Counted from the stretch's first letter, positions 12,837 to 56,641 are shown. The stretch is DNA of 64,000 bases from Candidatus Zambryskiibacteriota bacterium (GCA_963840745.1 CAWJAC010000005.1:91615-155614), one strand, 5' to 3'. Made by a program: numbers and translations. Notes: generated by a model from the letters alone, not told the origin.

Positions 12837-12837
12837 A

Positions 12838-14196
12838 ATGAATACAAATAAAGAAAAAATTGTAGTGCGGTATCCGCCGTCTCCGACAGGCTTATTTCAT
12901 ATAGGCAACGCCAGAACTTTTCTTTTCAATTATCTTTTTGCCAAGCAAAATAACGGGCAAGTAGTTTTTCGGCTGGAGGACACGGACAAAGAGAGATCCA
13001 AAAAAGAATACGCTGACGATATCATTGAAAATTTAAAATGGCTCGGTATTGAGCCAGATTTTTCCACAACCGTGAGACAATCCGAAAGAAAAGATGTATA
13101 TAAAAAATATTTAGAGAAGCTTATAGTTGAAGGTAAAGCTTATTTATCAAAAGAAGAAACAATAGAAGAAGGACAGAGAGATGAGGTAATAAGGTTTAAA
13201 AATCCAAACAAAAAAATAAAATTCAATGATTTGATAAGGGGTGATATAGAATTTGACACAACGGAGCTTAAAGATTTTGTCATAGCCAAAAGTTTGGACG
13301 AGCCGGTTTATCATTTGGCCGTAGTGGTGGACGATTTTGAAATGGGAGTAACTCATGTAATAAGAGGAGATGATGGCATTTCCAACACTCCCAGACAAAT
13401 TCTTATTCAAGAAGCAATAGACGCGCCTCGACCCATTTACGCTCATTTGCCACTGATGCTCGCACCAGATGGAACTAAACTTTCCAAAAGAAAACATGGT
13501 GAGCAAGTTTCTGTTTCTTTCTATAGAAACTCCGGTTATTTGCCGGAAGCCATGATTAACTTCTTGGCCATGGTAGGCTGAAACCCCGGAGGAGATCAGG
13601 AAATTTTCAGTATGGAAGAACTTATAAAAATTTTTGATATAAAAAAAGTTCAAAAAAAGGGCGGTATATTTAATATAGAAAAACTTGACTGGCTGAATCG
13701 TGAATATATCCTTCACACTTCAAATGAAAAACAAATTCAAAATTTAAAAGAGCAAATCACAAATACCAAATATAAAGATAACAAAAAATGGCAAGATGAT
13801 GAATTTACAGAAAAATTTATTAAAATAATTTTAGACAGAATTCACAGATGGGGAGAGGTGAGGGAAGTGATAGAGGCAGGGGAGTTTGATTACCTTTTTG
13901 AAAAGCCAGTATTAGATAAAGAAAAAATATGCTGGAAAAATCAGAGCCTAGAAAAAGCAAAAGAAAATTTAGAAAAAGTTTTAAGAATATTAAATGAAGG
14001 AAATTATAACATCGTTAAAAACAAAATAATGGAACTAGCCGAGAAAGAGGGAAAAGGGGAAGTTCTTTGGCCATTACGTTATGCTCTATCAGGCAGAGAA
14101 AAATCTCCAGATCCATTTACCTTAATTGATATTTTGGGAATTAGAGAGAGCGAAGATAGACTTGACAAAGCCGTTGAAGTATTGAATATAAATTAA
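12838..14196 (+). CDS. gltX: glutamate--tRNA ligase with an in-frame TGA at a conserved Trp position
   Basis: RYPPSPTGLFHIGNART (HIGH) and KLSKR. Track ORFs 12787-13581 and 13612-14196 are in the same frame, separated only by TGA 13579-13581 in ..NFLAMVG[TGA]NPGGDQEIFSMEELI. Confidence 0.85.
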
Positions 14197-22834: not shown

Positions 22835-23986
22835 CTACTCAGGCTTCATTATTTTTATAAAAACATCTTGAGGGATTGAGATTTTGCCTCTTTCTTTCAT
22901 TTTCTTTTTGCCTTTTTTCTGCTTTTCCCGCAGCTTCATTTTGCGGGTAATATCACCGCCATACATATGTTGGGTAACATCTTTTCTGTACGCTGAAATA
23001 GTGCGCGAAGCTATAATCCTGCCACGAGCTTGCGCTTGAACTTTAAGCTCAAACATTTGACGAGGCAGGAGACTTTTTAGTTTATCTACCAATATTTCTG
23101 CTTCTTTTTCAACAATTCTTTTTGAGACCACCCTGGCCAAAGCCGGCTCCTCATCACCACCAATTAAAATTGAAAGCTTAGTCACTTCCGCATTCCTCAT
23201 TTCAGCATTTTCGTAAGAGAGAGAGGCATAACCTTGAGAAGCGCTTTTGAGCTTGTCAAAAAAACCGCGCATCAGTTCACGCAGAGGCATCAGACATTCA
23301 ACGTCAGATTTATCGTCGCCAAAACTTTGGGTTGAAGTTACTTCGGCCTCAAATTCATAAAGCAGAGGCATCAAGCCGCCGATATATTGAGTAGGGGCTA
23401 TAATGTGCACCTTTATCCAAGGCTCTTCCACTTTTTCGATCAACCCGTCTTCAGGAAAAAATGCCGGTGAAAATATTTTGGTTATTTTGTGGTCTTTACC
23501 TTCTACTTCATAGGTAATGGACGGTTGAGTAATAACCAAAGAAAGATTGAATTCTCTCCTCAGCCGCTCGGTTATAATTTCCAAATGGAGCATGCCCAAA
23601 AAACCGCACCTAAATCCCTTGCCCAAAACGCCTGATGATTCTTCCTCATAATAAAGAGATGAATCGGTTAGTTTTAGTTTAGCAAGAGATTGTCTGAGCA
23701 AGAGCAAGTCATTTTGGTCTTCGGGAAATATGGAGGCCCAGACGACAGGATTGGGAATGGCGTAACCTTCCAGAGCTTCTCCCTTTTCTTTTTCTTTGCC
23801 GACAGTATCACCGACTCTTACAGCGCCCGGAGTTTTGATACCGGTTACTATATAACCTATTTCTCCAGCCGAAAGCTTCTCGACCGCTATTTCTTCCGGA
23901 TGAAATATACCGACTTCCAAAGCTGTAAATTTCTGGCCAGCTATCCTAAAAATTAAATTGTCCCCCGACGACACTTCCCCACTCAT
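22835..23986 (-). CDS. lepA: elongation factor 4 (LepA), C-terminal fragment
   Basis: Domains II-V and the LepA C-terminal domain (..MYGGDITRKMKLREKQKKGKKKM). The alternative frame upstream reads [20 protein letters not shown] and joins the N-terminal fragment. Confidence 0.88.
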   Translation of the reverse strand: MSGEVSSGDNLIFRIAGQKFTALEVGIFHPEEIAVEKLSAGEIGYIVTGIKTPGAVRVGDTVGKEKEKGEALEGYAIPNPVVWASIFPEDQNDLLLLRQSLAKLKLTDSSLYYEEESSGVLGKGFRCGFLGMLHLEIITERLRREFNLSLVITQPSITYEVEGKDHKITKIFSPAFFPEDGLIEKVEEPWIKVHIIAPTQYIGGLMPLLYEFEAEVTSTQSFGDDKSDVECLMPLRELMRGFFDKLKSASQGYASLSYENAEMRNAEVTKLSILIGGDEEPALARVVSKRIVEKEAEILVDKLKSLLPRQMFELKVQAQARGRIIASRTISAYRKDVTQHMYGGDITRKMKLREKQKKGKKKMKERGKISIPQDVFIKIMKPE

Positions 23987-24039
23987 TATTCTAGCAAAAA
24001 CTATGATGCCCCGATGAGTTGAATACTTAAAATCAAAAA

Positions 24040-24624
24040 CTAAAGCTTGGAGGGCGGCAAATGACCCTTGAACTGCCCCTGAAGAGGACGCGGGGCGGGA
24101 ATTTTTTCTACAATAGTCTCCAAAAGTTTTTCTACCCCCTCCCCTGTTTTGCCTGAAGTCTCTATTATTTCATCTTCTCTGCATCCTATAAGAGAGACTA
24201 TTTCGTCTTTGACCTCAGAAACTCTGGCTAAGGCCGAATCTATTTTGCTTAAAGCGGGTATGATAGAGAGTCCCTGTTTTTTGGCCATAGCGAGCACGGA
24301 TAAAGTCTGGGCTTCAATACCTTGAGTAGCATCAACCAATAGAACCACCCCTTCTACGGCGCTTAAGGCTCGGGAAACTTCATAAGAAAAATCTATGTGC
24401 CCCGGTGTGTCAATCAAATTAAGAATATAATTTTTCCACAGCATCCTGACCGGCTGCATTTTTATGGTGATGCCCCGCTCCCTTTCCAATTCCATATTAT
24501 CCAAAACCTGCGCTTTCATTTTGCGTTTCTCAATAGTGTTTGTAATTTCAAGCATACGGTCCGCCAAAGTGGACTTGCCGTGATCTATGTGCGCTATAAT
24601 CCCAAAGTTTCTAATGTTTTGCAT
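24040..24624 (-). CDS. lepA: elongation factor 4 (LepA), N-terminal GTPase fragment
   Basis: AHIDHGKST (G1), DTPGH (G3). Frame is lost after EKIPAP at a C-run near 24090. Confidence 0.88.
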
Positions 24625-26358: not shown

Positions 26359-26381
26359 GTATCAAAGGCAGCCTTTGACAC
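26359..26381. terminator. hairpin, copy 1 of the GTGTCAAAG/CTTTGACAC family
   Basis: gtatcaaagg-cag-cctttgacac, directly downstream of the repeat-protein stop. The minus-strand reading is followed by a T-rich tract. Confidence 0.55.
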
Positions 26382-26391
26382 GTTTTAACCT

Positions 26392-27622
26392 CTATCTAAA
26401 TTTGACACTGCCACCGCTTCCGCCACCGCGAATTTTGATGTTGGGGTTGGTTGCGTTCGGAGTTCCAGACCCACGGATTTTAACATGGGGAATGCCGGCG
26501 GGTGGCGGAGCTTCGCCGGGAGAGAAAAGTCCTATTGAAGTGACGGCCGAAGTGACAGTCGGGTCGGTTGTGGTAAATTCAAATTTGTAATAAAAACTGG
26601 TGCCAGTCAAGGAGAGAGACGACAAATTGATGGCGGTGGCATCGGTCATATGATTGCCAGATGATAAAGTGTCTGAACCCCATTTTACGCCACTTGAACT
26701 ATACCAGTCGCCACTGGCGGTTGAAGTTGAAAACTGGACAGTAACAGTAGTACCGGACGGCAGAGAAGAAACGTCGTAGCCAAAGAGTTCATTGCCTATG
26801 AGTGTCCCTCCGCCGGCGAGAAGGTTGGTAGACACCAAATCTCCCTGTTTGTATGTCAATATCCCTGAGCCGGCGGTATAATCCACGGCAACCGAGTCAA
26901 CATTCGGCGTATTATCAAAACCTGTGGTTGTAAAATGCAATTTATAATAAATCAGCGGCCCGCTCCAATTTAAAGCCGAAAGACTGATTGTGTTGGAGCC
27001 ATTCACCAGCGAATTTTCAGTCCAAGCTGTGCCGGTATTGTCATACCAATTAATTTTGTCACGAGAAAATTGGACGGTGACAGTTTGACCGGTGGTAATG
27101 GCAGTGGTAGCTGAAAATTGGGTGATGGCGCCGACATTGGAGAGGCCGGCCAAAAAATTGGTAGAAACCAAATCGCCATCCAAATAATAATCATGAGTCG
27201 GCCCGGCGATTTGAGTATAGCTCACATTGACAGCGTCAATTTGTGGAGTGCTGGTGGTAGCATTGCGATTGATATTTAATTTATAATAAAATACCGGACC
27301 AGTCCAACCAAGAGCGGAAATGTTGATGGTATTGACACCATTAGCAAGAGAATCTTCACCCCAAGCGGTGTTGGCGCTGTTATACCAATTAATTTTATTT
27401 CTAGAAAACTGCACAGTGACGGTTTCGCCAGCCCCAATGGTGGTGGTAGCCATAAACTGAGTAATGGCACCAACATCGGTCAAACCAGTCAAAAGATTGG
27501 TGGAAACCAGTGAGCCGGTTTTGTAATAGTCGGTGGCGTAAGCCGAGTGGGCGCCAAAAAAGAAAAAATACAAAAAGAAAAACGGTCATGAGTATAAATT
27601 TCGATTTGTAAGTTGCTTTCAC
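26392..27622 (-). CDS. secreted protein with three tandem ~113-aa repeats and a Gly/basic C-terminal tail
   Basis: Repeats share DLVSTN.LAGL..VGAITQF.ATT...G.TVTVQFSR.KINWY....TAW.E.SL.NG.NTI..SAL.W.GP..YYKL. The signal peptide (GTG 27622, MKATYKSKFILMTVFLFVFF) is in another frame and joins across a T-run near 27560. Confidence 0.6.
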
Positions 27623-27805
27623 CTGCTTTATTTTATCATACTTTTAATCATTTTTATCGACCTAAAATCGTCACCAAATTGAAACATGCCCAGGTGCTTT
27701 AGCGGCACTATTTAAAACGGTTTTTCGCCTTAATCCGAAACTTTCAGCGTGAATAAAATGTCCTAAATACGAATTGACTCGTGACACATATTTTTTCAAA
27801 CACCA

Positions 27806-27828
27806 GTGTCAAAGGGCATCTTTGACAC
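27806..27828. terminator. hairpin, copy 2 of the GTGTCAAAG family, abutting the RT-1 stop codon
   Basis: gtgtcaaag-ggcat-ctttgacac (9-bp stem), 1 nt from the RT stop at 27830-27832. Confidence 0.5.
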
Positions 27829-27829
27829 G

Positions 27830-28810
27830 TCAAGGTTGAATCTTGACTTTTTCGTAAATTTTATTTTTGCAATTTGAAACCACCCGCCGACGAATCAGCA
27901 TATAATCCGGTTTTATAAAATAGCCCAGAAAATCAATCCCATGGTTGGTTTCTTTTAATTTTGTCTTATCAAGATTCAATTTTATGGCCAAGCGATTCCC
28001 CAGAAAATTATTTATAACCGCTTCCAGCGCCAGCAATTTGGACTCGTCATTGTGAAGCAGGACAAAATCGTCCACATACCTCACATAATATTTCATTTCC
28101 AATTTTTGCTTTACAAAATAATCCAGTTCATTCAAATACATATTGGCAAAAAACTGCGAGCTGTAATTGCCGATGGGAAGCCCCGAGCCTTTGGGCGCGT
28201 AAAAAAGTGACTTGCGCCGCGGAATCAGATCAAACAAACGCCGGTCGCCCCTTATCTCGCAATTTTTGGCTGGTTCATGGAAAGTGATTGTTGAACCGAG
28301 CCAAAGTATTTCTTTTTTCCATTCTTCTGTCCGCTCCGCCTTCAAAATAAAATCATTAAAAATATAAAACAATATATCGTGTTTGATAGAGACAAAAAAA
28401 TTTTTGATATCAAGCTGAAGATAATGTACTTTGTCTTTCCCTCCACGCGAACAGGCGCGCAAGTATCTTCTCAGGGTTTTTACAGCTTGGTGCGTCCCCT
28501 TACCTTTGCGACAGGCAAAACTATTAAAGAAAAAACACTTGTCGCTTTCATCCAAAATTTCTCTAACCATTAAGTGGTGAACGATGCGGTCGCGAAAATC
28601 GGCGGCAAATATCTCTCTCGGCTGGGGATATTTAACCACAAAGCATATCGACCGGCCGGGCGCATAGGTTCCGTTTTTCAGTTCAGTGAGCAAATTCATC
28701 AAATTCTCTTCAAGATGGTACTCAAATTTCAAGGCGTTGTCGGTGCTGCGCTTATTTTTCCGGCAATCCAAATACGCTTTGTATAAATTAGTATATGAAA
28801 AAATAGTCAT
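27830..28810 (-). CDS. DGR-1 reverse transcriptase
   Basis: Start at MTIFSY (28810). RT motifs REIFAADFRDRIVHH and YVRYVDDFVLLH (YxDD). DGR-type motif LPIGNYSSQFFANMYLN. Confidence 0.9.
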   Translation of the reverse strand: MTIFSYTNLYKAYLDCRKNKRSTDNALKFEYHLEENLMNLLTELKNGTYAPGRSICFVVKYPQPREIFAADFRDRIVHHLMVREILDESDKCFFFNSFACRKGKGTHQAVKTLRRYLRACSRGGKDKVHYLQLDIKNFFVSIKHDILFYIFNDFILKAERTEEWKKEILWLGSTITFHEPAKNCEIRGDRRLFDLIPRRKSLFYAPKGSGLPIGNYSSQFFANMYLNELDYFVKQKLEMKYYVRYVDDFVLLHNDESKLLALEAVINNFLGNRLAIKLNLDKTKLKETNHGIDFLGYFIKPDYMLIRRRVVSNCKNKIYEKVKIQP

Positions 28811-28829
28811 AACATAAAACCCCACAAAA

Positions 28830-28860
28830 GACAGTGTCAAAGGCCGCCTTTGACACTGTC
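28830..28860. repeat. hairpin, copy 3 of the GTGTCAAAG family, at the avd/RT junction
   Basis: gacagtgtcaaagg-ccg-cctttgacactgtc, a perfect 14-bp stem. Contains the Avd stop codon. Confidence 0.6.
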
Positions 28861-29298
28861 TGCCCATTTGGCCCAGCCGCCGGCCATTTTTTCCATTTCG
28901 GCTATAAACTGCTCCTGCAAATGAGCAAACTGGTTTATTGAAATCAAGTTTATTTCTTGCGACATCCGCAAACGCATTTTCAATCTTTTAAATGCGGCGG
29001 CAAGCTCTGCGATCTTCTCTGCTTTGCGGTCATTGGGAAGAATATTTATTTCAACCACCAAATCAAGGCAACGCCAAGACAAATCAAGAATTTCCCGGCC
29101 GAGAGAATATTTATGTTCTCTCGGAAAACTGCGGATAATATTGTGCAAATACTTCGTCATCGCGTAAGATTTGCGGTAAAGAGACAGATTTTCGCAATCG
29201 CTCATTTTTTGGTTGTTTGGCTGTCTGAATAGGCGCTTCCCTTCTTTAGTGTGCAGAAGGTGCCCTTCTGCATTTATTTGCGGCAAACGCCCATTCAA
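28837..29298 (-). CDS. avd: DGR-1 accessory variability determinant (Avd-like four-helix-bundle protein)
   Basis: YRKSYAMTKYLHNIIRSFPREHKYSLGREI...EMEKMAGGWAKW. The likely true start is MSDCEN at 29205 (122 aa). Confidence 0.8.
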   Translation of the reverse strand: MNGRLPQINAEGHLLHTKEGKRLFRQPNNQKMSDCENLSLYRKSYAMTKYLHNIIRSFPREHKYSLGREILDLSWRCLDLVVEINILPNDRKAEKIAELAAAFKRLKMRLRMSQEINLISINQFAHLQEQFIAEMEKMAGGWAKWADSVKGGL

Positions 29299-29317
29299 AC
29301 CTTGCTTTTATAAATTT

Positions 29318-29441
29318 CCCGGAGACGCACCGCACGGCGTAGGCGTTATTCTTGTTGTTGTTGTTGTTCGGCACACCAGTGCTGAAATTGACGTTCCAAG
29401 CGTTCGTGGCACTGTTCTCAGTAGAGCTCCAGTATATGGAG
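29318..29441 (-). repeat. DGR-1 template repeat (TR)
   Basis: 124-nt gap-free match to 30540-30663. Coding-sense TR contains AAC AAC AAC AAC AAC. All 9 differences lie at TR adenines. Confidence 0.92.
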
Positions 29442-29618
29442 AACTGAATTCTCCCGCCTTTTCAATTCTCAAATATCTTAAAAAAATATTTTGCAATCAA
29501 TTCCCCATCATATTTGATGTAGGCGCGGGAGCGTGGTTTATATAGCAATCTCTCTTAAATCCGCGCAGCTTTTGCCGCAACAGCACTTAAGATTCCGGCC
29601 AAAGTTAATTAATAAAAT

Positions 29619-30449
29619 TTAATTTTCAATTTTCTTTTTGTTTTTCCGATTTTTCAAAAAATTTTTCTTTGACACAACTGACTTGCCCAGTTCTTTTTCA
29701 AGCTCTTTTCTGGCATTTCCGGCTATTTTTCCGCCTCGGTTTGCGTCTTGTTTTAGTTTTGGAATTCCCCTTGAATCTTCCTGACGATGAATTTCGGTTG
29801 TTGAACGCTCACCCAACATATTAAAAATAAGTTCAAAATCATCCATATGATCACGCAGATTTTCTCTTTTGAGTCCTTTTAGTTTTTTGTATTCACTCGG
29901 AGTAACGCCAAAAGTGGCTTTGGAAATTTCGGCAGTTAAAATTTCATATTCTCTTTCTTCTTTAGCTCCTCTTTTTTTCCATTCATCCGTCAATTCCTCG
30001 CGAATGGCGATGCCTCTCATTCTTTTCTCTATCCAATCATCGGAATATCCTTTGAGTTTGTAAAGTATCCTGGTTCTTTTTGTAGCCAATTCCGGATTTT
30101 CAATTTCTTGTACTCTTTCATACCCCACTTTTGCCAACCAGCGTTTGAATGGTTCAGCTTTGGGCGAAGGAATTGATTGGATGATGCGAAACATACCTTC
30201 CACATCGGCGCAATCTGTTTCTCTCATTTTTCCGTCTGGGGCTGGTAATTTCAACTGTCTACAAATTGTAGATAGTTGAAATCCGTCTTCATTTTTAATC
30301 CTAGCTTTCATAGCTGTCCAATATGCACTTGGTCTATCACTATCCGTCAATGTTTCTATAACATCAATAACAGAAAACCACCATTCATTTTGAAAAATGG
30401 TTTTTCTAATTTTTCGACCTTTAAATAACGCTATTTTTGTTGTTTCCAT
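29619..30449 (-). CDS. Bro-N / DNA-damage-inducible protein D (DinD)-like protein
   Basis: N-terminal Bro-N pattern (IRKTIFQNEWWFSVIDVIETLTDS..P..YW). C-terminal DinD-like region (AKVGYERVQEIENPELA...LTAEISKATFG). Confidence 0.7.
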   Translation of the reverse strand: METTKIALFKGRKIRKTIFQNEWWFSVIDVIETLTDSDRPSAYWTAMKARIKNEDGFQLSTICRQLKLPAPDGKMRETDCADVEGMFRIIQSIPSPKAEPFKRWLAKVGYERVQEIENPELATKRTRILYKLKGYSDDWIEKRMRGIAIREELTDEWKKRGAKEEREYEILTAEISKATFGVTPSEYKKLKGLKRENLRDHMDDFELIFNMLGERSTTEIHRQEDSRGIPKLKQDANRGGKIAGNARKELEKELGKSVVSKKNFLKNRKNKKKIEN

Positions 30450-30533
30450 TTTTTTATTCTCTTTTTTCGCGCGAGGATGGGAAAATAAAACTAAATTAAA
30501 AATTAAAAAATTAATAAATGGGGCAAATGGGAA

Positions 30534-30986
30534 CTACCACCCGGAGACGCACCGCACGGCGTAGGCGATATTCTTGCCGTTGCCGTTGCCCGGCACACCA
30601 GTGCTGAAATTGACGTTCCAAGCGTTCGTGGCACTGTACTCAGTAGAGCTCCAGTACATGGAGGTTCCGAAATTATTCCCGAATTTTGTCGCGCGGTAAG
30701 TGTATATGGCATTCAATTCATCAATTGTCGGCAATCGACCACCGATGGCTTTGCAAGCGTCTCGGGCCGCATAACTGCTGAAATTTATGGTGTTGTCGGC
30801 TTTCAGATTGTCTCCGTCCTGCCCGCCATCGATGCCGCATTGCGGCCTATCACAAGCCGTGTTGGTCGGTTTCCAGGCGTAAGCTTGTCCTCCGGGTAAG
30901 AGAAGTGGTGGCAACCAAAATATAATTTCCATCACCCAGACGATCGATAATGACATCATCGTAACCGGTGCCGCAAAACCAAACAT
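30534..30986 (-). CDS. DGR-1 variable target protein, DUF1566/C-type-lectin-like C-terminus
   Basis: GGRLPTIDELNAIY...MYWSSTEYSATNAWNVNFSTGVPGNGNGKNIAYAVRCVSGW. The 5' end is uncertain: frames upstream suggest a fusion with 30989-31171. Confidence 0.85.
   Translation of the reverse strand: MFGFAAPVTMMSLSIVWVMEIIFWLPPLLLPGGQAYAWKPTNTACDRPQCGIDGGQDGDNLKADNTINFSSYAARDACKAIGGRLPTIDELNAIYTYRATKFGNNFGTSMYWSSTEYSATNAWNVNFSTGVPGNGNGKNIAYAVRCVSGW
30540..30663 (-). repeat. DGR-1 variable repeat (VR)
   Basis: Covers the last ~41 codons of the target. Differs from the TR at + positions 30568, 30577, 30578, 30583, 30584, 30589, 30590, 30638 and 30657 only. Confidence 0.92.
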
Positions 30987-30988
30987 TG

Positions 30989-31171
30989 CTATCGCAAGTT
31001 CTGCTCGCTAAGACGTGCTACACCGGCGCCGGTATCAACCGTAGCATGCCAAGTGCTCGCCACTTTGGTGGAAGTAGAAAAGTCATCGCTCACCGTGAAA
31101 GCATACAATATCAGATAATAACCTGAAAATGCCAGCCCGATTATTCCGATGAAAATCACTCCGAATCGCAT
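30989..31171 (-). CDS. TM-anchor ORF, probably the 5' part of the DGR-1 target
   Basis: MRFGVIFIGIIGLAFSGYYLILYAF membrane anchor, ending 2 nt before the target ORF. A third frame in between reads CDSNVWFCGTGYDDVIIDRLGDGNYILVATT. Confidence 0.45.
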   Translation of the reverse strand: MRFGVIFIGIIGLAFSGYYLILYAFTVSDDFSTSTKVASTWHATVDTGAGVARLSEQNLR

Positions 31172-31355
31172 AGCTTTTATTTTGGGCGATAGTTTTTATT
31201 ATGTTCGTTATTTTTTTCATCATAAACGTTTGGTTAAATTATTAATTATTTTTATTATAACATTATTTTTTGTCCACATTATTACTTGACATTGTTTTTG
31301 GGTTTGATATGCTTGATCTATCCTTAGAAAACGCCGGCCTGTACGGCGTTTTCCT

Positions 31356-31961
31356 TTATATCTCTTTCTTTATCCTCATTTTCAAATCGTTAATATCAAT
31401 AAAGAAAACGTTTTTTCTGTTCTCGGCAATCAAATTTCGGAGTTTCGTTGAAAATCTAGAAATTGAATAACGAGGACCGCTTTTTATTTTTTTGGCATTG
31501 GAAACAATATGAACAATTGATCCATTTTCAATTACTTTTTTTATCAAATATTCAAAATCCCCGTCTCCAGTAAAAATGTAAAATTCAGAATCCGCTCCGG
31601 CACATTCCATAGCATCAACTGTCAAATCAACATCACAATTTGATTTTCTGTTATAACCCATATCGATTGTTTCTGAAAACTCATTGCCACATTTTGGGCA
31701 TTTAATTTTTATATTTTTATTTATATTTTTGTATGAAAATACCACTTTTGATCTAACAATTCCTCCGTCTTTCAATAGGAGTTCAAATTCTTTTTCGGTT
31801 TCTGAATCACCCGCATCTATGCCGGTATAAAAGAATACTTTTTCACATTTCCAATCATTTTTCAGGAATTTAAATAATTTTCTCCAATCTACCAAAAATC
31901 CCAAGACTTTTCGAGTAGTTGTCTCGGTGTTTTGAACATCTATAAAAGCAAATTTTTGCAT
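31356..31961 (-). CDS. NYN (LabA/DUF88-like) domain nuclease with inserted Zn-ribbon
   Basis: FIDVQN...FYTG...CDVDLTVDAM...IFTGDGDFEYL pattern, with CPKC insert. Confidence 0.7.
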   Translation of the reverse strand: MQKFAFIDVQNTETTTRKVLGFLVDWRKLFKFLKNDWKCEKVFFYTGIDAGDSETEKEFELLLKDGGIVRSKVVFSYKNINKNIKIKCPKCGNEFSETIDMGYNRKSNCDVDLTVDAMECAGADSEFYIFTGDGDFEYLIKKVIENGSIVHIVSNAKKIKSGPRYSISRFSTKLRNLIAENRKNVFFIDINDLKMRIKKEI

Positions 31962-37827: not shown

Positions 37828-40047
37828 TCACTGCCGGTGTCGTAGTTGATGTGTCAGAAATGGTAGAAGTAGAAACTCCGGCAACTTCTGGCACAACGTG
37901 CGGTAGTGGCAGGAGATAATTGTAATCGTTCGAAAGTATCTCATTGTCGGCACCGCGATAGAACTAAACACCTTAGCCGATTTCACGGCCAGAGCGGTCC
38001 AGCTGAAAGGAACGTCTGTCGGAGCCGGTTTGTTGAGAAGAATAGTGAAGCCTTTTTCTGATTTATTGGTCACCAAAAATCTCACATCATTCGAGAAAAT
38101 CTGTTCTTCAATATTATTTCCACCAACCGGCATGGTGGAAGTAGCGGCCTGCGGTGAGCCTGTCGAATCCGTTGAGGAAGCCGCATCAAATGAAATAGTA
38201 GTGTTGACGATCGGCTGTTCCAAATATTCTCTATCAAATGTTACTTCTACTTCCCTACTGCCCGCCTTGACCACAGCAAACCCGGCCGTGTCTTTGGTGA
38301 AGTATGGTCGGCCTATAAATTCGGTATCCGACATGAGGCTTAAGTAATCACTGACAGATGAAATCTGATCTACATGCAAACCATTATTTAAAGTCAAAGG
38401 AGCGTCAATAGTAAGGCCATTTGGGTTCCCGAACATTGCGTTTATATCGATTGCTCCAGTACTGCTAGCGGTTTTCGCGGTTTCCAATATTTTTAACCTA
38501 TCACTCAAATCAGCAAAATTAAGCACCAATTTATCGGTAGTGGAAGCCAAAATATTTAAAGAATTTTCCAAACTCTCAAGAGTCAAAGAAGTGCTTGATG
38601 AAATTTGATTCAAATTTGCAAGTGAAGTTCCAATGTCTTTAACATTAAATCCGCTCGCCGTAACTTGACCGACAAAAGAAGCGTTGCCAAAAGCGTCAAC
38701 AGTAATGGCCGGCAAATCAACGCCTCGATATGAAGATTTCAAAGTGGAAGTGCCGTTAAGAGCATCTAACACATCAACAGCTCCGCCAATTTGTTTGATA
38801 GCGTTTAAAGCGACGGCAGACAGCGAACCGTAGTCAACGGTCATTGACCCGCTTGTGCCGTAAACCACTTCAGGAATTGTATTTTGGAGCTCTTGGGCTA
38901 TAAAGCCGAGGCCGGGCTGGCCGTTGGCTTTGTAATTAAATTCCCGCGGTTCAAGTTGCATGGCTGTAGCCAAACCATATCTCAAATCGGCGACATTGTA
39001 TTTGTAGGCGGCATCAGAAGAGTTGGTCCACACGCCGGTTGTGGTAAGTGTCGCCGTAGTTGTAGTTGATTGGAAAGAGAGGGTGCCGTCGGTAGACATC
39101 CAGAGCGAACGATACGAATTTCCGCTCTGCGGAGTCGGAGAAAGAGTCAAACCTCCGTTCTGATCATTAGAACTTTGAACAATTGCTAGTTTACCCCACG
39201 GACTCGTCGTCCCGATGCCGACATTGCCGTGGCCATCTATTCTCATTCTTTCCCCAAGCCCATTAATGTCTGAATTATAGGTAGAAAAAGCCATATATCC
39301 GTTAGTTATCGTAGCGCCAAGCCCAGCAGTAATGCGTTGTGTTTCTGTTAACCCGTTTCCTGCATACCACGAAATATGGGAAGTTAAGTTTAAGCCGTTA
39401 GCGTAATTGAGTCTTAAGGCTTCAGCATCAACAGCTTGCCCCGATTGGTCCAATGTCAAAAGTGGGTTAGTAGCAAGTTGCCCTGCGCCAGGCTGGATAA
39501 GGACATTTGTTTTGCCAGTGATAGCCGTTGCATCTTGAATAAACAGAGTTTGATTTGCCGTTCCTCCATTTGGCTGAACTTGCAAAGTATATGTCGGCGT
39601 GCTCGTCCCGATGCCGACGTTGCCTGCATTTGTTACGACTAAACCAGTTCCACTTGACCCACTGACATTTAACGCCTGATTAGTATTTAAAATATCGGCA
39701 CCAAGAATCTGCAATTTAGCTGATGGGGTCGCGATTCCCATGCCGATATTGCCTGAATTTTGCTGCACTACAAACTGATTTATGCCAATTGTCAAACCAC
39801 CCGTTGAAATTGTTGAGGTGGCCACCGTGCTGGTGGCATTAAAATTACCAAAGGTCGGAGTGGAGGTGGCTACAATTGCTCCAGTTCCATTTGTTGAGAG
39901 TATTGAGTTGATGGCACAGCGGATAAAGTGACAGCACCGGTAATGGGGACGGAAAATCCGGTGGCCGTTAAGATACCGGTTGAAGGAACAAAAGATAATT
40001 TTGTTGTGGAAATTTTTGCCGCGGTGTTGCCTGCAGCGGTAGTCCAA
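37828..40047 (-). CDS. giant tail-fibre-like surface protein, fragment 6 of 6 (contains S74 intramolecular-chaperone-like domain)
   Basis: GN(I/V)G(M/I)G(I/T)..P..KL motifs. S74-like WTNSSDAAYKYNVADLRYGLATAMQLEPREFNYK...GFIAQELQNTIPEVV...VDYGSLSAVALNAIKQ at about 38785-39030. True frame runs from about 39915 to about 37950. A further frame runs to TAA 37734-37736. Confidence 0.65.
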   Translation of the reverse strand: MDYRCRQHRGKNFHNKIIFCSFNRYLNGHRIFRPHYRCCHFIRCAINSILSTNGTGAIVATSTPTFGNFNATSTVATSTISTGGLTIGINQFVVQQNSGNIGMGIATPSAKLQILGADILNTNQALNVSGSSGTGLVVTNAGNVGIGTSTPTYTLQVQPNGGTANQTLFIQDATAITGKTNVLIQPGAGQLATNPLLTLDQSGQAVDAEALRLNYANGLNLTSHISWYAGNGLTETQRITAGLGATITNGYMAFSTYNSDINGLGERMRIDGHGNVGIGTTSPWGKLAIVQSSNDQNGGLTLSPTPQSGNSYRSLWMSTDGTLSFQSTTTTATLTTTGVWTNSSDAAYKYNVADLRYGLATAMQLEPREFNYKANGQPGLGFIAQELQNTIPEVVYGTSGSMTVDYGSLSAVALNAIKQIGGAVDVLDALNGTSTLKSSYRGVDLPAITVDAFGNASFVGQVTASGFNVKDIGTSLANLNQISSSTSLTLESLENSLNILASTTDKLVLNFADLSDRLKILETAKTASSTGAIDINAMFGNPNGLTIDAPLTLNNGLHVDQISSVSDYLSLMSDTEFIGRPYFTKDTAGFAVVKAGSREVEVTFDREYLEQPIVNTTISFDAASSTDSTGSPQAATSTMPVGGNNIEEQIFSNDVRFLVTNKSEKGFTILLNKPAPTDVPFSWTALAVKSAKVFSSIAVPTMRYFRTITIISCHYRTLCQKLPEFLLLPFLTHQLRHRQ

Positions 40048-40427
40048 AGCGGATAGACAGACGACACTGTTGCCAAGTCATCAGCGGAATTAACCGGCAC
40101 GGTAATATCGATGCTGCCATCAAAAGCCGTTCCATTAATATTTTTAGTAGCAAAAAGTTTGGTGGCGGTGGAAGCGTTGCCGGAGAAAGCGCCGGAAAAT
40201 GTTGTAGCTGTGAATGTTCCCCCGCCGGAAATATTATTGCCACTCATTGCAATATTGCCAAACATATTTAATCCACCAGCACCAATATTTGATGCCAGTG
40301 TTGTTGAAGTCGCATTAAAATTGCCAAACGTCGGAGTGGTGGTGGAAACAAATCTTGTGCCGTCAAAAGCAAGCAAAGTGTTGTTGGCAAATGAGGTAGC
40401 GTTAGTGCCGCCGTTTGCAATGCCCAA
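39870..40427 (-). CDS. giant tail-fibre-like surface protein, fragment 5 of 6
   Basis: GIANGGTNATSF...FSGNASTATKLFATKNINGTAFDGSIDITV, a fibre-type repeat. Joins its neighbours by 1-nt shifts near 40448 and 39915. Confidence 0.6.
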   Translation of the reverse strand: MGIANGGTNATSFANNTLLAFDGTRFVSTTTPTFGNFNATSTTLASNIGAGGLNMFGNIAMSGNNISGGGTFTATTFSGAFSGNASTATKLFATKNINGTAFDGSIDITVPVNSADDLATVSSVYPLWTTAAGNTAAKISTTKLSFVPSTGILTATGFSVPITGAVTLSAVPSTQYSQQMELEQL

Positions 40428-40435
40428 AGTGCCGG

Positions 40436-41263
40436 TCAGAGAAGTGAGGGCGCCGTCAAGTTGCCGAAATATGCATAGGTGGATGAGGCATAGGTGGCCG
40501 AGAGCAAAGTGGTGGAAGCATTGGCAAAAGTCTGCAGTCCAGTCCAGCTGTTGGCATTGGCCAGATTGAGACCAATGGTGACAGCCGCATTTTCGGCGCC
40601 GGAGTTGTTGACTGTCAATCCGCCACTGGCGGCGTTGGCCAGGGTGGCTAAGTAGTTGCCGGTGGTGTCAGTGCCGAGGATGATCAAGTCAGCTAAGGTT
40701 GAGGCCCCGGTGCCTCCATACAAAACCCCGATGGTGGTGGTCGCTCCGACCACGCCGGCTCTGACATCAAGCGGGCCGTTCAGAGTTGAGGCCAGATTGA
40801 TGGTGCCGACATTGAGATTGGTGGTGGAGGCGGTGATGAAGGAAGAGTATGAAGTGGAAGAAGAGTATGAGGAGGAGAACAAACCACCACCGGAGATATT
40901 GTTTCCACCCATGGCAATGTTGCCGGCCATGGTGCCTCCTGTCAGAGCCAGGTTGCCGGAAGCCGTGCCGGTCAGGGCGGCCGTGATGGTGCCGGCAGAG
41001 AAGTTGCCGCTTGAATCGCGAGCCACCAAAGTGTTTGCAGTGTTTGTTGAGGAAGTGGCCACATTGCCGAAGGTGTTAACACCGGTGAAGTATGGAATGT
41101 TGCCGATGACAGCGGCGGAGGAGGTGGACAGTCCGCCAAAGCCGACTGTGGTGCCGGAGAGAGTGATGGGCCAGGTGACGGAGATGGCGGCTTGCTTCCC
41201 GCTGAAAGTATTGTAGTCGGAGGTGGAGAGACAGCCGGCTTGCGAACCGTGGCGGTGAGGCAA
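40436..41263 (-). CDS. giant tail-fibre-like surface protein, fragment 4 of 6
   Basis: AGCLSTSDYNTFSGKQAAISVTWPITLSGTTVGFGG...LVARDSSGNFSAGTITAALTG. Confidence 0.6.
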   Translation of the reverse strand: MPHRHGSQAGCLSTSDYNTFSGKQAAISVTWPITLSGTTVGFGGLSTSSAAVIGNIPYFTGVNTFGNVATSSTNTANTLVARDSSGNFSAGTITAALTGTASGNLALTGGTMAGNIAMGGNNISGGGLFSSSYSSSTSYSSFITASTTNLNVGTINLASTLNGPLDVRAGVVGATTTIGVLYGGTGASTLADLIILGTDTTGNYLATLANAASGGLTVNNSGAENAAVTIGLNLANANSWTGLQTFANASTTLLSATYASSTYAYFGNLTAPSLL

Positions 41264-41940
41264 GTCAGTGTGGCGGCTGCGCTTCCGATGACTGAAATGG
41301 CGTGATCGAGAGAGAGAGCTCCTGTGGCAGAAAGTGATGTGGTGGCCACCGAGCCTAACTTGGCCGGCACACCGTTAGTGGTTGTCCAATATGCCAGATT
41401 GCTCATGACTTCACCTGATGAAGTGGCCAGTTGGTTTGAGAGTGTGATAGTGCCGCCGAGAGCCACTGTGCCTCCGCCACTTAAACCAGTGCCTGTGTTA
41501 ACGGTGACGGAAGTGTTGGTCAAACCGAGAGAACCTGAATTGTTTGTCAGTCCCGTGCCAGCCAGATTGTTAAATGATTGATTTCCCACGATGAGATTGG
41601 TGGTGGAGGCGGTGATGAAGGAAGAGTATGAGGTGGAGGAGGAGTATGCAAAAGTTTGATTGCCAATAAATGTTTGAGCGGCATCGGTGCGAGCTAAGGT
41701 GGCGTTAGAGTCAGGTAGGGTGAAAGTTTTTTCAGATGATGTTGGGCCCACGAATTTGGTAAAGCCATTGCCTGTGCCGCCATATGTTGAAGCAATGATT
41801 TGATTGAGATCAGCTGAACCGTTAAAGGTGTTGCCATAAATTGATCGAGAGTTTGCAAGTGTGGTGGCTGTACTGGCATTGCCTGTCAAAGCAGCAGTGA
41901 TGATGCCGGCTGCAAAGTTGCCTGAGGCATCTCGGGCCAC
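40972..41940 (-). CDS. giant tail-fibre-like surface protein, fragment 3 of 6
   Basis: ARDASGNFAAGIITAALTGNASTATTLANSRSIYGNTFNGSADL. The last ~95 residues of the track ORF are an out-of-frame read of fragment 4. Confidence 0.6.
   Translation of the reverse strand: MARDASGNFAAGIITAALTGNASTATTLANSRSIYGNTFNGSADLNQIIASTYGGTGNGFTKFVGPTSSEKTFTLPDSNATLARTDAAQTFIGNQTFAYSSSTSYSSFITASTTNLIVGNQSFNNLAGTGLTNNSGSLGLTNTSVTVNTGTGLSGGGTVALGGTITLSNQLATSSGEVMSNLAYWTTTNGVPAKLGSVATTSLSATGALSLDHAISVIGSAAATLTCLTATVRKPAVSPPPTTILSAGSKPPSPSPGPSLSPAPQSALADCPPPPPLSSATFHTSPVLTPSAMWPLPQQTLQTLWWLAIQAATSLPAPSRPP
41052..41187. repeat. intragenic 136-bp direct repeat, copy A
   Basis: Matches 41965-42100 with 4 mismatches and no gaps. 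Confidence 0.85.
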
Positions 41941-44102
41941 AAAGGCTCGGCGGTATTGATTGATGAAGTGGCCACATTGCCGAAGGTGTTAACTCCGGTG
42001 AAGTATGGAATGTTGCCGATGACAGCGGCGCATGAGGTGGACAGTCCGCCAAAGCCGACTGTGGTGCCGGAGAGAGTGATGGGCCAGGTGACGGAGATGG
42101 TTCCCTGTTTTCCATTGAGTGTAGTTTGCAAATCTGTTCCTCCTAATGAAAGTGTTCCAAAGAACACATTGGTTGATAAGGCATATGTTGAAGAGAATAA
42201 TGTTGAAGAAGCGTTGGTGAATGTTTGTAATCCAGTCCAGATATTTGCATTTGCTAAATTTAGAGTCAGAGCATTGCCTGAAATTTGTAACCCGCTACCA
42301 GTTAAATCATTAAATGATTCGCCATTAACAATTAAATTTGTAGTACTCGCAGTATTAAAAGATGAATATGCAGTTGATGAAGAGTATCCGAAGGAAAGAA
42401 TGGAGGTGGTGGCAGAGACTCCAACTGATGGATGGGTGAAGGCATCGTATGAATACAGCGGTGAGCCGAAGTCGGACACTTGCGATTTGGTGATTAAGAG
42501 ATTGGGCAGAGAGATGATGGAAGAGATTGAAGTGGTACCCATTTCAATTTTTCCATTATTTAAAGTGTTTAGTGAAGTTTGTAAATCATTGCCACTGAGA
42601 GAGAGGGTGCCGAAGTATGCATTGGTTGATGAAGCATAAACGGAGGAGAAGAGAGTGGAGGAAGCATTGGCAAATGTTTGCAAGCCAGTGAAAATATTAT
42701 TTTTATAAAGTTTAGCAATGGTGGTCGATGCATCAATGTATGAATTAACAACTGAAGTATCAAGAGTAAGCGCACCGCCGGTATTAATAAGTCCCGAGCC
42801 CAATAAATTGTTAAAAGAATTATTTCCTACAATTAAATTGGTGGTGCTTGCGGTGTTGAATGAAGAATAAATGGTCGAAGATGAATAAAGGAAACTGACA
42901 TTGCCGCTGGCGCGCCAGACATTTGTGCCATCGGTTGCCCAATTACCGGTAGTGGCTCCGCCAATAATATTGCCCGCCCAATAAAGATCACCATTTGAAT
43001 TATAAAGACGAGAAGATGAATCGGAAGGAATGGAAGTAGAAGCAATATAGAAAGCGCCATCTAAAGTTAAAGTGTCTTGCCTTGTGGTAGTACCTACCGC
43101 AAGCCAATCTGTAGCAGAAAGATTAGTGGCAGTAGTAGTTCCAAATGTGGCAGAGTCGGAAACTGAAAGAGAAGTGAATGATCCGGAATCAGCAGAAACA
43201 GAAGAGCCAGAAAAAGAAGAATTGGTAATTGTAGAGCTGTCTATATTGGCAATGCTGTTTTTAATGCTGCCACTTAAATTATCAATAATCCTGTCATTTT
43301 GATTTGTGATGTAATAGCGATTGACGTTTGGAACTGTATTTGAAACGAAAGGCAATGTCAGGAAATAATTTTTTAATTGCGCGATTTGCGTGTCTACATA
43401 ATTTCTATCGGAGCTGGCCACAAAAACAGTTTTAGCTATGCTTGCTCCCGCCGAAGTGGGAGCGGAGGTGGGAGAAGTGGTGGAGGATGTATTATTTTCA
43501 ACGATAATAGTGCCTCCATTATTTGAAAGCCAAGGTTTTATTATTTTATACGCAGTATCTTTTATCCATCCAGAAACAGATTGCAATCCATCTACAGAAA
43601 ATATAGAAGAAGCAAGCTGACTGCTATTTTGCCCCAAGTTTGAGGCATTTTTCTTAAATTTTGAATAATTACTTTCCAATTCATTCACATAAGGACCAAA
43701 GACATAGGACAGCTCTCCTTTGACATGACTACCAAAATTATTTGGAATCAACTTAGCCATGCTTTCTTTTCCAAAAACAAAACCAAAAGCAGAGAGTAAA
43801 ACAAAGGAAACTATGGTGGCATTTATGGCAAGCTTTTCGAAATTAGACTTCTTTTTTGGTCTTTTTATTGCCTCCTCAATACTACTCAGAGCAATATATT
43901 TTGCCGCATTTGCGTCAAACTTTTTTTCCAAAACTGGAAATAATGGTTTATCATCCTTGTGATATAAGGGTTTTACCACTCCGACATCTCGGGTGCCCGA
44001 GATATTCGATTTTATCCCCTTCTTTTTCCAGTGGAAAAATAACATCTGAAGCTGAGTTTTTACTATATTTAGGGATATTTTTTTCTTTACTTTCTCTATC
44101 AT
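41886..44102 (-). CDS. giant tail-fibre-like surface protein, fragment 2 of 6
   Basis: TM anchor (AINATIVSFVLLSAFGFVFG), then Ser/Thr/Asn-rich repeats (YSSSTxYSSFxTASTTNLIV). Confidence 0.65.
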   Translation of the reverse strand: MIEKVKKKISLNIVKTQLQMLFFHWKKKGIKSNISGTRDVGVVKPLYHKDDKPLFPVLEKKFDANAAKYIALSSIEEAIKRPKKKSNFEKLAINATIVSFVLLSAFGFVFGKESMAKLIPNNFGSHVKGELSYVFGPYVNELESNYSKFKKNASNLGQNSSQLASSIFSVDGLQSVSGWIKDTAYKIIKPWLSNNGGTIIVENNTSSTTSPTSAPTSAGASIAKTVFVASSDRNYVDTQIAQLKNYFLTLPFVSNTVPNVNRYYITNQNDRIIDNLSGSIKNSIANIDSSTITNSSFSGSSVSADSGSFTSLSVSDSATFGTTTATNLSATDWLAVGTTTRQDTLTLDGAFYIASTSIPSDSSSRLYNSNGDLYWAGNIIGGATTGNWATDGTNVWRASGNVSFLYSSSTIYSSFNTASTTNLIVGNNSFNNLLGSGLINTGGALTLDTSVVNSYIDASTTIAKLYKNNIFTGLQTFANASSTLFSSVYASSTNAYFGTLSLSGNDLQTSLNTLNNGKIEMGTTSISSIISLPNLLITKSQVSDFGSPLYSYDAFTHPSVGVSATTSILSFGYSSSTAYSSFNTASTTNLIVNGESFNDLTGSGLQISGNALTLNLANANIWTGLQTFTNASSTLFSSTYALSTNVFFGTLSLGGTDLQTTLNGKQGTISVTWPITLSGTTVGFGGLSTSCAAVIGNIPYFTGVNTFGNVATSSINTAEPLWPEMPQATLQPASSLLL
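41965..42100. repeat. intragenic 136-bp direct repeat, copy B
   Basis: Matches 41052-41187. Encodes ISVTWPITLSGTTVGFGGLSTS.AAVIGNIPYFTGVNTFGNVATS. Confidence 0.85.
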
Positions 44103-44418
44103 TTATATCTTCATTTTGCTCTTTTTTTAGACTTCTTAGATTTTTTGGATTTGCCGATTTTACAGCCAAACCATTTTTTTTAAGTCGGCGAGTTTTGAGG
44201 GTTTTCTTGTGAGCAAGTAGATTTTTATTTTTGTGATCTAAAATTTCGTTCTCTAAGACATACCAGCTCCTGCCAACCAGACTGGCAGAGATTTTTTTTG
44301 CTCTGCAAAGTTGTCCGACATAATCACTGTCATAGCCGGTGATGTCAGCAGCTCGGCTAGCCGAGATGTATTTTTTACCTTTCAGATAGAGAGTCTTATT
44401 CACATATATATTATACAA
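43951..44418 (-). CDS. giant tail-fibre-like surface protein, fragment 1 of 6 (N-terminal HTH-like module)
   Basis: KKYISASRAADITGYDSDYVGQLCRAKKISASLVGRSWYV. Joins fragment 2 by a shift near 43990. Confidence 0.55.
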   Translation of the reverse strand: MYNIYVNKTLYLKGKKYISASRAADITGYDSDYVGQLCRAKKISASLVGRSWYVLENEILDHKNKNLLAHKKTLKTRRLKKNGLAVKSANPKNLRSLKKEQNEDINDRESKEKNIPKYSKNSASDVIFPLEKEGDKIEYLGHPRCRSGKTLISQG

Positions 44419-44978: not shown

Positions 44979-45372
44979 GAAAGTAAATTTCTGAATATTT
45001 AATGTATATATTATTAAATATAAAAAAGACAATCAAGCTAAGAATATTCTAAACCAGAATTGTTATAAATAACAACCACAAAAACATTCCCCTCTCTTTT
45101 ATATATAAAATATATTGATAGTAGTATATTTCTATAAGTTTAATTTTTATTGATTTTTAAATAAAAATGTTTCCTATCATCTCAATTAAATAAACTTGTT
45201 TTGGTATAAATAAAATCAAACCAAACAGAGATTAACAGAGATTAGATCTTCTCCAGCTCATCTAAGTTGACATTGTATACATCACAAACTAGCTCAATAC
45301 TGTGTGAAATTATGTAATACAAATTACACTAAACCATTAATATGGTGCAACATCTTGTTGTAAAAATCTATA

Positions 45373-45412
45373 CTAAACGCTCAGCGTCTAATATTAGACG
45401 CTGAGCGTTTAG
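45373..45412. repeat. 40-bp perfect palindrome (REP/IS200-type hairpin) upstream of the RAYT gene
   Basis: ctaaacgctcagcgtctaat|attagacgctgagcgtttag, 20/20 arms. The left arm recurs at 3826-3854. Confidence 0.85.
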
Positions 45413-45468
45413 TAGTTATCCACACACTGAAAAACAGCACCAGAAGCTTCTGCTATACTAGAAGCATC

Positions 45469-50137: not shown

Positions 50138-50178
50138 GAGGGTGACCCTTGAGGATTCTGCCCCAAAGGGTCACCCTC
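50138..50178. terminator. 13-bp perfect hairpin overlapping the RT-2 stop codon
   Basis: gagggtgaccctt-(15 nt)-aagggtcaccctc. A second GC hairpin, ccctcccct-tgatc-aggggaggg, lies at 50064-50086. Confidence 0.5.
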
Positions 50179-51157: not shown

Positions 51158-51158
51158 A

Positions 51159-51759: not shown

Positions 51760-51767
51760 ATACCGCT

Positions 51768-52409: not shown

Positions 52410-52482
52410 ATATTTGAAAGTTCTTGTTTAATAAGCTATTATTATAGTGTCTGAAATTTTATTACTTTTTTAATATAAAATT

Positions 52483-52923: not shown

Positions 52924-52956
52924 ATTTTTAGAGTTAAATTAGCAAAATACACAGCC

Positions 52957-52988: not shown

Positions 52989-53004
52989 CTCTATGAGAGT
53001 GACT

Positions 53005-56638: not shown

Positions 56639-56641
56639 AAT

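Follow-up and report, generated by a model that had tools for sequence, protein, structure and literature searches.

Diversity-generating retroelements (DGRs), in which a reverse transcriptase (RT) and Avd transfer sequence from a template repeat (TR) to a variable repeat (VR) with changes specific to adenines, are known from Bordetella phage BPP-1 (gene order mtd-avd-TR-brt), from Legionella pneumophila (the LdtA DGR; PMC5758913), and from bacteria of the candidate phyla radiation (CPR), to which the cell-encoded 'DGR clade 2' is restricted (Roux et al. 2021, PMC8144416). Here we describe DGR-1, a locus on the minus strand of a 64,000-nt stretch of DNA from Candidatus Zambryskiibacteriota bacterium (GCA_963840745.1, CAWJAC010000005.1:91615-155614; hereafter the window), which an earlier note, made from the sequence alone, had called a complete DGR that looks functional. 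Its adenine footprint, DGR-type RT, bAvd protein, C-terminal VR in a predicted lectin-type fold and synteny with relatives make it a genuine DGR, as the note had held. However, neither 'complete' nor 'functional' is supported by the locus as assembled, in which the RT gene is cut by two TGA codons ahead of the last two thumb helices and the target gene is split by two +1 frameshifts. We conclude that DGR-1 is a chromosomal, cell-encoded DGR of a bacterium of the ultra-small Patescibacteria (CPR) type that has most likely been recently inactivated or strongly attenuated and is not working, a reading to which we assign a probability of roughly 0.62.

The TR/VR pair, the components of DGR-1 and their relatives

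The TR and the VR align over 124 nt without a gap. Our recount returned this alignment and its nine mismatches exactly where the earlier note had placed them (plus-strand positions 29435, 29416, 29368, 29367, 29362, 29361, 29356, 29355 and 29346 in the TR); each is an A in the coding sense of the TR, replaced by G in seven cases and by T in two. Adenines make up 35 of the 124 TR bases (and not the '20-odd' given earlier), and nine random mismatches would all fall on A with P = 5e-6. Differences at other bases, which the earlier note had named as speaking against a DGR, are present at none of the 89 non-A positions. This adenine-only footprint shows that rewriting of the VR did happen, and the lack of any non-A difference argues that the last homing event was recent. 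Nearly all of the TR adenines (34 of 35) occupy codon positions 1 or 2 in the VR frame, and every one of the nine changes in the VR is non-synonymous (I>M, N>Y, three N>G and N>I); the AAC run of the TR and the VR peptide GVPGNGNGKNI read as noted earlier.

The homology between the two repeats breaks off sharply at both flanks, on the 3' side abruptly after GGG. The last 21 nt of the TR (GCCGTGCGGTGCGTCTCCGGG) are 81% GC in a window of 40% GC and are identical in the VR, and so resemble the 3' end of an initiation of mutagenic homing (IMH) sequence; no IMH/IMH* mismatch pattern is visible in the 3' ends of the two repeats. The 27-nt 3' end common to both is found at just these two sites within the window, where the TR and VR are the sole copy pair of the repeat and the TR has no further VR. 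In phage-type DGRs, a GC-rich hairpin or cruciform is located 4-34 bp downstream of the VR (PMC3240598). Such a structure is absent from DGR-1, in which the 75 nt that follow the VR fold with -7.2 kcal/mol (z = -0.7), like shuffled sequences. Not all DGRs have a hairpin at this place.

The RT is recognized by a Pfam RVT_1 match within the open reading frame (ORF) 27830-28867, whose probable start is the ATG at 28810 (the 19 codons upstream of it in the listed ORF overlap avd), and by the motifs IGNYSSQFFAN (residue 213) and YVDD (residue 245), both of which the earlier note had picked out. Its top relative by sequence in the PDB is the RT of a Bordetella phage (bRT, 8ub7; E = 1e-35), followed by a chain deposited as 'Retron-type reverse transcriptase' (E = 6.5e-12). 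The RT has ~8000 homologues, typically ~385 aa in length, of which the closest is P0002 (69% identity), encoded on the ENA contig BUCK21-1 scaffold_12922 (hereafter L001). A model of P0002 (predicted local distance difference test score (pLDDT) 85) likewise matches bRT 8ub7 best, over the whole length (template modelling (TM) score 0.84 normalised to the target, E = 7.5e-21). The avd-like gene noted earlier between the TR and the RT gene is identified as such by both Pfam bAvd and NCBIfam DivGenRetAVD, the latter covering positions 1-104 of a 104-position profile at 66.7 bits, under the curated cutoff of 80 bits; comparison of the Avd sequence with solved structures gave nothing significant.

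The target ORF that contains the VR matches Pfam Lcl_C (formerly DUF1566), in keeping with the DUF1566-type target proposed earlier. Real homology begins at ~30875, from where the lectin-like domain extends to 30537, and by tblastn the ORF is 67% identical to residues 115-224 of the L001 target. The structure prediction for which the earlier note had called, an AlphaFold model of the last 113 target residues (mean pLDDT 68; above 80 for residues 41-100 and 71 over the last 13), matches the C-terminal domain of Legionella Lcl (8q4e), intimin and classical C-type lectins; the VR is thus predicted, with moderate model confidence, to form the C terminus of a C-type-lectin-type fold. A gene for an NYN-domain protein (a predicted RNase; 31356-31961) is found immediately upstream of the target gene on the same strand, and a strong hairpin (31327-31353) lies between the two.

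The spacer between the TR and avd is strongly structured: the region 29200-29320 folds with a minimum free energy of -43.1 kcal/mol (z = -6.2), and 0 of 200 shuffles were equally stable. For bRT, an Sp RNA and a duplex between Sp and an upstream segment have been described (bioRxiv 10.1101/2023.10.23.563531), and we consider the spacer of DGR-1 a candidate counterpart of this Sp RNA, which primes and positions the template. On the other side of the TR, the leader would also be part of the DGR RNA. Its TTTGGCCGGA segment is common to the window and L001, its closest relative, and, in the fold of 29195-29640 (z = -5.4), pairs with GCCAAA just past the 3' spacer in a manner that, by analogy, resembles the upstream-segment:Sp duplex of bRT; covariation support for the TTTGGCCGGA:GCCAAA pairing was not found. 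(Note that TTGGCCGG was considered as a general motif of related cassettes and was rejected; it is present at 22 of 81 loci, at scattered positions, and is conserved only with the closest relative.)

DGR-1 fits DGR clade 2 of Roux et al. (PMC8144416). Its neighbours include housekeeping genes (those for aminoacyl-tRNA synthetases, mraY, ftsW, murG, murJ, gatB and scpA/B), which places it in a chromosomal setting, and the RT relatives that a profile detects in species-representative genomes are mostly from metagenome-assembled genomes of Patescibacteria (such as Moranbacteria, Paceibacterota and Staskawiczbacteria). The order target, TR, avd, RT and 'down' gene is shared with L001, L004, L021 and L023, each of which has its own adenine-biased TR/VR pair. 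On L001, the target (224 aa) belongs to the same family, with an N-terminal anchor followed by Lcl_C, the GC-rich TR/VR 3' end reads ..GGTGCGTCTCCGG, and the gene that follows the RT encodes a large repeat protein. What the window has and L001 lacks are a Bro-N gene between the VR and the TR, palindromes past avd and inside the RT gene, the two TGAs in the RT and the two frameshifts in the target; the TR-avd spacer is 112 nt in the window versus ~30 nt in L001. The gene found after the RT in all close relatives (26392-27622 in the window) encodes ~393 aa here versus >1082 aa in L001; it contains internal 232-nt repeats, and its signal-peptide-like start (ORF 27401-27622) is put out of frame in a T6 run.

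With the Legionella LdtA DGR, whose DUF1566-type target falls in the DGR target category 'd'/CLec2 (Wu et al. 2018, PMC5758913), DGR-1 shares a C-terminal VR, a short surface-anchored target, a DUF1566/Lcl_C variable domain and a target model that matches the Legionella Lcl C-terminal domain. The two differ in host phylum and in the anchor, which in the window is an N-terminal hydrophobic segment and not a demonstrated lipoprotein signal. The BPP-1 DGR resembles DGR-1 in the fold and motifs of its RT, in Avd, in adenine-specific transfer from TR to VR, in a GC-rich common 3' end and in structured RNA 3' of the TR. In contrast to BPP-1, DGR-1 has the order TR-avd-RT rather than avd-TR-RT, is chromosomal rather than phage-borne, has an Lcl_C domain in place of the Mtd-type C-type-lectin domain, and lacks a GC-rich GRNA-loop hairpin within 75 nt past the VR.

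The minus-strand order that the earlier note had given, namely target/VR, a dinD-like gene (here the Bro-N gene), TR, avd and RT, agrees with ours. The Bro-N gene is probably a floating insertion and not a core part of the DGR. It is missing between the VR and TR of L001, which are 220 nt apart, and homologues with 66-81% identity are found at four other positions (L010 2-502, L019 2408-3229, L021 7083-8140 and the contig of P0002); between lineages, it is better conserved (66-81% aa identity) than the adjoining DGR RTs (~50-55%). Its slot varies by cassette: upstream of the target, between the VR and TR, immediately in front of the RT, or behind it. These findings suggest that the gene is mobile, or is repeatedly recruited, in association with this DGR clade.

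If DGR-1 follows the Bordetella phage paradigm, the TR and its structured flanks would be transcribed, the RT-Avd complex would copy the TR RNA into cDNA with misincorporation opposite template adenines, and the cDNA would replace the VR, anchored by the GC-rich identical 3' end. The outcome, to which the footprint testifies, is that ~17 Asn-rich codons are rewritten; these would lie on the face that binds the ligand in a C-type-lectin-like surface protein with a membrane anchor.

Table 1 Features of DGR-1 and associated palindromes, in window coordinates
Feature	Position	Strand or site	Description
Target, N-terminal piece	30989-31171	minus	third frame; hydrophobic anchor and DDFSTSTKV..TWHATVDTGAGVARL; homologous to L001 target residues 3-75
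Target, middle piece	30862-31011	minus	second frame, ..TCDSNVWFCGTGYDDVIIDRLGDGNYILVATT..; tblastn match to residues 70-119 of the 224-aa homologue
Target, C-terminal ORF	30534-30986	minus	Lcl_C/DUF1566 C-type-lectin-like domain with VR; Pfam Lcl_C E = 9e-11
VR	30540-30663	minus	last 41 codons of the target gene; 124-nt ungapped match to TR
Bro-N domain gene ('dinD-like')	29619-30449	minus	between VR and TR; Pfam Bro-N E = 6e-13
Putative non-coding leader 5' of TR	29442-29618	minus	from alignment with L001; contains TTTGGCCGGA (29594-29603)
TR	29318-29441	minus	from repeat comparison with VR
Structured TR-avd spacer	29206-29317	minus	long predicted stem around hairpin 29251-29273
avd	28837-29205	minus	122 aa; Pfam bAvd E = 7e-16 (listed ORF 28837-29298)
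Palindrome A, GTGTCAAAG GCGGC CTTTGACAC	28834-28856	avd/RT junction	extended 14-bp stem, then T-rich TTTTGTGGGGTTTT
RT gene, N-terminal part	27830-28810	minus	326 codons: N-terminal extension, fingers, palm and first thumb helix; RVT_1
Small hairpin adjoining palindrome B	27829-27847	RT	carries the first in-frame TGA
Palindrome B, GTGTCAAAG-ATGCC-CTTTGACAC	27806-27828	inside RT thumb linker	perfect, 23 nt; second TGA in 3' arm
RT, C-terminal remnant	27671-27808	minus	same frame as N-terminal part; thumb helices 2-3, motif NSYLGHFIHAESFGLRRK
Palindrome C, one mismatch	26359-26381		11 nt past the stop of the conserved downstream gene 26392-27573

Interruption of the RT and target genes

The ORF that ends at 27830 had been taken for the RT gene in the earlier note, but it is truncated, and the last two thumb helices are encoded behind its stop. 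The first in-frame stop, a TGA at 27830-27832, is located 82 residues past YVDD, and a second TGA (27809-27811) follows eight codons past the first. Behind both, the RT frame runs on with ..KKYVSRVNSYLGHFIHAESFGLRRKTVLNSAAK.. to 27671 and contains, in frame, the conserved thumb motif NSYLGHFIHAESFGLR; a tblastn search with the L001 RT gave a single high-scoring segment pair (28810-27689) that spans the two stops. Both stops map, in a multiple alignment, to a linker of variable length, and behind them lies the C-terminal motif with the highest conservation. All of the 75 scorable relatives have the thumb motif in one uninterrupted ORF that extends at least 104 residues past YxDD, versus the 82 found in the window. 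Relative to P0002, the C-terminal remnant is about as conserved as the remainder of the protein, a further sign of recency; searched alone by sequence against solved structures, this fragment gave nothing significant.

The thumb in the P0002 model comprises helices 308-319, 332-349 and 352-363, and the linker between the first and second of these is the sole disordered stretch. Because the TGAs fall in this linker, the RT as assembled is predicted to lack thumb helices 2-3, two of the three, and no uninterrupted RT frame that includes the thumb is present in assembled DGR-1. The thumb of bRT touches both the template:primer duplex and a 'Thumb Ring' RNA that cDNA synthesis requires (bioRxiv 10.1101/2023.10.23.563531). 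We propose that palindrome B and its adjoining hairpin put the two in-frame TGAs into the thumb linker, such that the RT ends after thumb helix 1; the two +1 frameshifts further split the target gene.

Mechanisms by which the RT stops might be decoded were considered and rejected. Genome-wide recoding of UGA (as Gly or Trp) is at odds with the use of TGA as an ordinary stop, which ends 10 of the 41 well-defined ORFs of the window (about a quarter), real genes being otherwise free of internal TGA. For selenocysteine insertion directed by a selenocysteine insertion sequence (SECIS), no Rfam match was found in the window, and the second TGA is inside the stem. A T4 gene 60-type translational bypass would need take-off and landing codons that match in the proper frame, and none were seen.

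In the target, three frames are needed to cover the 224-aa homologue, and an intact ORF is not found: DDFST..TWHATVDT (30989-31171), CDSNVWFCG..GDGNYILVA (30862-31011) and the lectin-like domain are each in a frame of their own. Deletion of 1 nt near 31009 and of 1 nt within 30876-30893 restores a 211-aa ORF that is collinear with the 224-aa homologue, whose architecture recurs in further homologues of 194-198 aa. The earlier suggestion that the target is membrane-anchored if it is fused to 30989-31171 thus holds for the ancestral protein, the anchor being homologous to that of intact relatives, but not for the gene as assembled. The frameshifts may be artefacts of the assembled sequence, two housekeeping genes in the window being disrupted as well.

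The palindrome within the RT thumb linker is one of three copies in the window, where 0 would be expected. Palindrome A supplies the last 8 codons of avd and its TGA stop (the Avd of L001 ends ..GGWSKWC*, and the palindrome is absent there) and is terminator-like (-30.1 kcal/mol, z = -4.2); palindrome C is followed by a T-rich tract and also scores as terminator-like. Exact GTGTCAAAG-N5-CTTTGACAC copies are present at at least 120 metagenome loci (L082-L201); most of these have a GC content of 30-46%, and many come from groundwater or sediment sets. The recurrent loop variants are few, the ATGCC/GGCAT of the RT copy being the commonest among the matches listed, and doublets, either tandem or inverted, occur at some of the listed loci. 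At 12 of the 120 loci listed, an IS200-like Y1 transposase gene has the palindrome next to its 5' or 3' end, within ~50 nt. Judging from sequence, the three palindromes are probably repetitive extragenic palindromic (REP)-like elements, whose distribution suggests that they are mobile. What broke the RT gene appears to be a family of REP-like palindromes that, in low-GC groundwater and sediment contigs, is associated with IS200-like Y1 transposases. The second RT TGA is not a base-calling error, because it is an integral triplet of a perfect palindrome that recurs, together with its loop, in metagenomes. The possibility that the palindrome is a conserved feature of the RT clade was rejected, as none of the 81 RT-relative loci has it; nor do the viral contigs searched contain it.

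Like the elements of the described system of REPs and REP-associated tyrosine transposases (RAYTs; Bertels and Rainey 2011, PMC3116915), these palindromes are short, dispersed and multi-copy, are often located just past genes, flank both ends of IS200-like Y1 transposase genes and form occasional inverted doublets. Unlike those elements, they differ in sequence, their apparent hosts are low-GC groundwater and sediment contigs, 3 copies are visible in the 64-kb window with one inside a protein-coding gene, their movement is deduced, and the Y1 transposase gene of the window itself is flanked by another palindrome. A literature search returned no paper tying REP doublets (REPINs) or RAYTs to Patescibacteria. 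We also considered whether the palindrome is linked to the Y1 transposase of the window itself, and rejected this because that gene (Y1_Tnp, 45469-46137) is preceded by a different, perfect 44-nt palindrome (45371-45414). This consists of TAGACGCTGAGCGTTTAG twice, in inverted orientation; a further, third copy of TAGACGCTGAGCGTTTAG is found between genes at 3834-3851. With the TAGACGCTGAGCGTTTAG palindromes, the genome has a second REP-like family that differs from the first.

A second DGR and a giant repeat gene in the window

A second DGR occupies 50177-59137. Its RT gene (50177-51181, minus strand, 334 aa) is uninterrupted and its product is ~33% identical to the DGR-1 RT; a divergent bAvd gene is found at 51195-51509 (plus strand) and the TR at ~53005-53145 (minus strand). 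Its three VRs (53413-53567, 54507-54661 and 58224-58378) form the 3' ends of paralogous genes and contain 14-17 differences each, 45 of 47 being at TR adenines. The target proteins of this DGR have no Pfam match, and Fic-domain-like genes (51768-52409 and 57195-58127) are interspersed. The middle target (54512-55412) contains a frameshift at ~54748 (context ctctctcgag), and its VR falls outside the annotated ORF. Elsewhere, a giant gene for a repetitive surface protein with a Peptidase_S74 chaperone domain (37828-44418) is frameshifted and falls into at least 5 overlapping minus-strand ORFs, some of the breaks coinciding with internal 184-nt repeats (41027-41210 and 41940-42123).

Alternative explanations and implications

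Several observations weigh against inactivation or strong attenuation of DGR-1. In gltX (12787-14196), which apart from this codon is one continuous frame with an end-to-end alignment to solved glutamyl-tRNA synthetase, a single TGA (13579-13581) stands exactly at the conserved Trp of LLGW. In addition, the two parts of lepA (EF4; 22835-24624), one ORF for the GTPase and one for the C-terminal region, are not in the same frame, and the gene is restored by a 1-nt insertion anywhere in 24040-24171, an interval with G4/C4 runs. Both lesions are hard to accept as biology. The gltX TGA may be an error of the consensus, a true lesion or a sign that UGA is read through as Trp, and some or all of the single-base indels, those of the target included, may likewise be consensus or assembly errors. 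(Overall, the assembly is not a poor one, since most housekeeping genes match full-length profiles.) The case for the target being a pseudogene is weaker because lesions in the window would be either assembly errors or tolerated or suppressed by the organism. Moreover, both RT stops are in the TGA-C context that is reputedly the leakiest, such that some full-length RT may be made; an intact RT, that of the second DGR, is found 22 kb away; and the mobility of the palindromes is read from their distribution. The RT protein forms a cluster by itself, from a single contig, and look-ups found no second assembly of the same strain; in species-representative genomes, a single-protein query found no close RT relatives and a profile gave only relatives of at most 59% identity.

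DGR-1 might be fully functional. The target indels would then be consensus or assembly errors, and either the two TGAs would be read through, with Trp for instance, or a 326-aa RT and a separate C-terminal peptide would suffice together. The comparable lesions in gltX, lepA and the downstream gene (with its T6 run) are consistent with this explanation, as are the identity of the TR and VR at every non-A position, a C-terminal RT segment that is both in frame and conserved, and the context of the stops. With a TGA at a Trp codon of gltX, appreciable read-through of UGA is conceivable in this organism, and we therefore retain full function as an unlikely explanation that nonetheless carries real weight. 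Against it stands the fact that TGA ends well-defined genes in the window and is otherwise not found inside real ones; two read-throughs in series would, moreover, multiply two low efficiencies. Neither stops nor a palindrome are found at the RT site in any of the 75 relatives, and the terminator-like palindrome between avd and the RT gene is a further derived obstacle. Two indels within 640 nt of target greatly exceed our rough tally of ~1 lesion per 6 kb (about ten in 64 kb), and the RT stops are unlike the indels in being built into a palindrome that recurs.

The remaining explanations concern the source of RT activity and the nature of the palindromes. Diversification of the DGR-1 VR in trans by the RT and Avd of the second DGR, with the DGR-1 RT dead, would draw on a nearby element that has an uninterrupted RT, bAvd, a TR and three adenine-mutated VRs, but the two RTs are only ~33% identical, no similarity is detectable between the two TRs and their flanks, and the Bordetella RT-Avd depends on specific RNA elements that flank its own TR (bioRxiv 10.1101/2023.10.23.563531); we regard this as highly improbable. 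It is doubtful, albeit less so, that the palindromes are conserved regulator sites or plain intrinsic terminators rather than mobile elements, with the RT copy an attenuator or operator that evolved in place. Some metagenome copies are 11-13 nt from a TATAAT-like -10 box, which in several listed copies reads as extended TGTGGTATAAT (from inspection of the flanks by eye), TTGACA occurs within the 3' arm, copies A and C are followed by T-rich tracts with terminator-like scores, and the stem sequence is conserved rather than covarying. However, most of the copies close to promoters stand directly upstream of a Y1 transposase gene and others abut the 3' ends of such genes, which is the classic REP-RAYT layout, and 49 of the 121 copies listed are inside ORFs of at least 100 aa; neither reading of the palindromes takes away the two stops of the RT.

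There is also a slim chance that the RT is throttled rather than dead. UGA would then be decoded at a low but useful level, probably as Trp, and the two palindrome-delivered UGA-C codons would set a very low dose of full-length RT. If true, this would also account for the gltX TGA at a universally conserved Trp codon, and the mobile palindrome, of a previously undescribed Patescibacterial REP/RAYT type, would be a rheostat for targeted hypermutation.

Whether inactivated or attenuated, as we favour, DGR-1 adds one to the thousands of DGRs catalogued in CPR bacteria, and its target class (DUF1566/Lcl_C) is already known. Automated DGR callers, on detecting an RT domain, Avd, a TR and a VR, would score the element as complete despite the loss of two thumb helices, and DGR-1 is thus a concrete case for checking ORF integrity before a DGR is counted as active. 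The only unusual element in DGR-1 is the REP-like palindrome that truncates the RT, a family that may merit a separate look.

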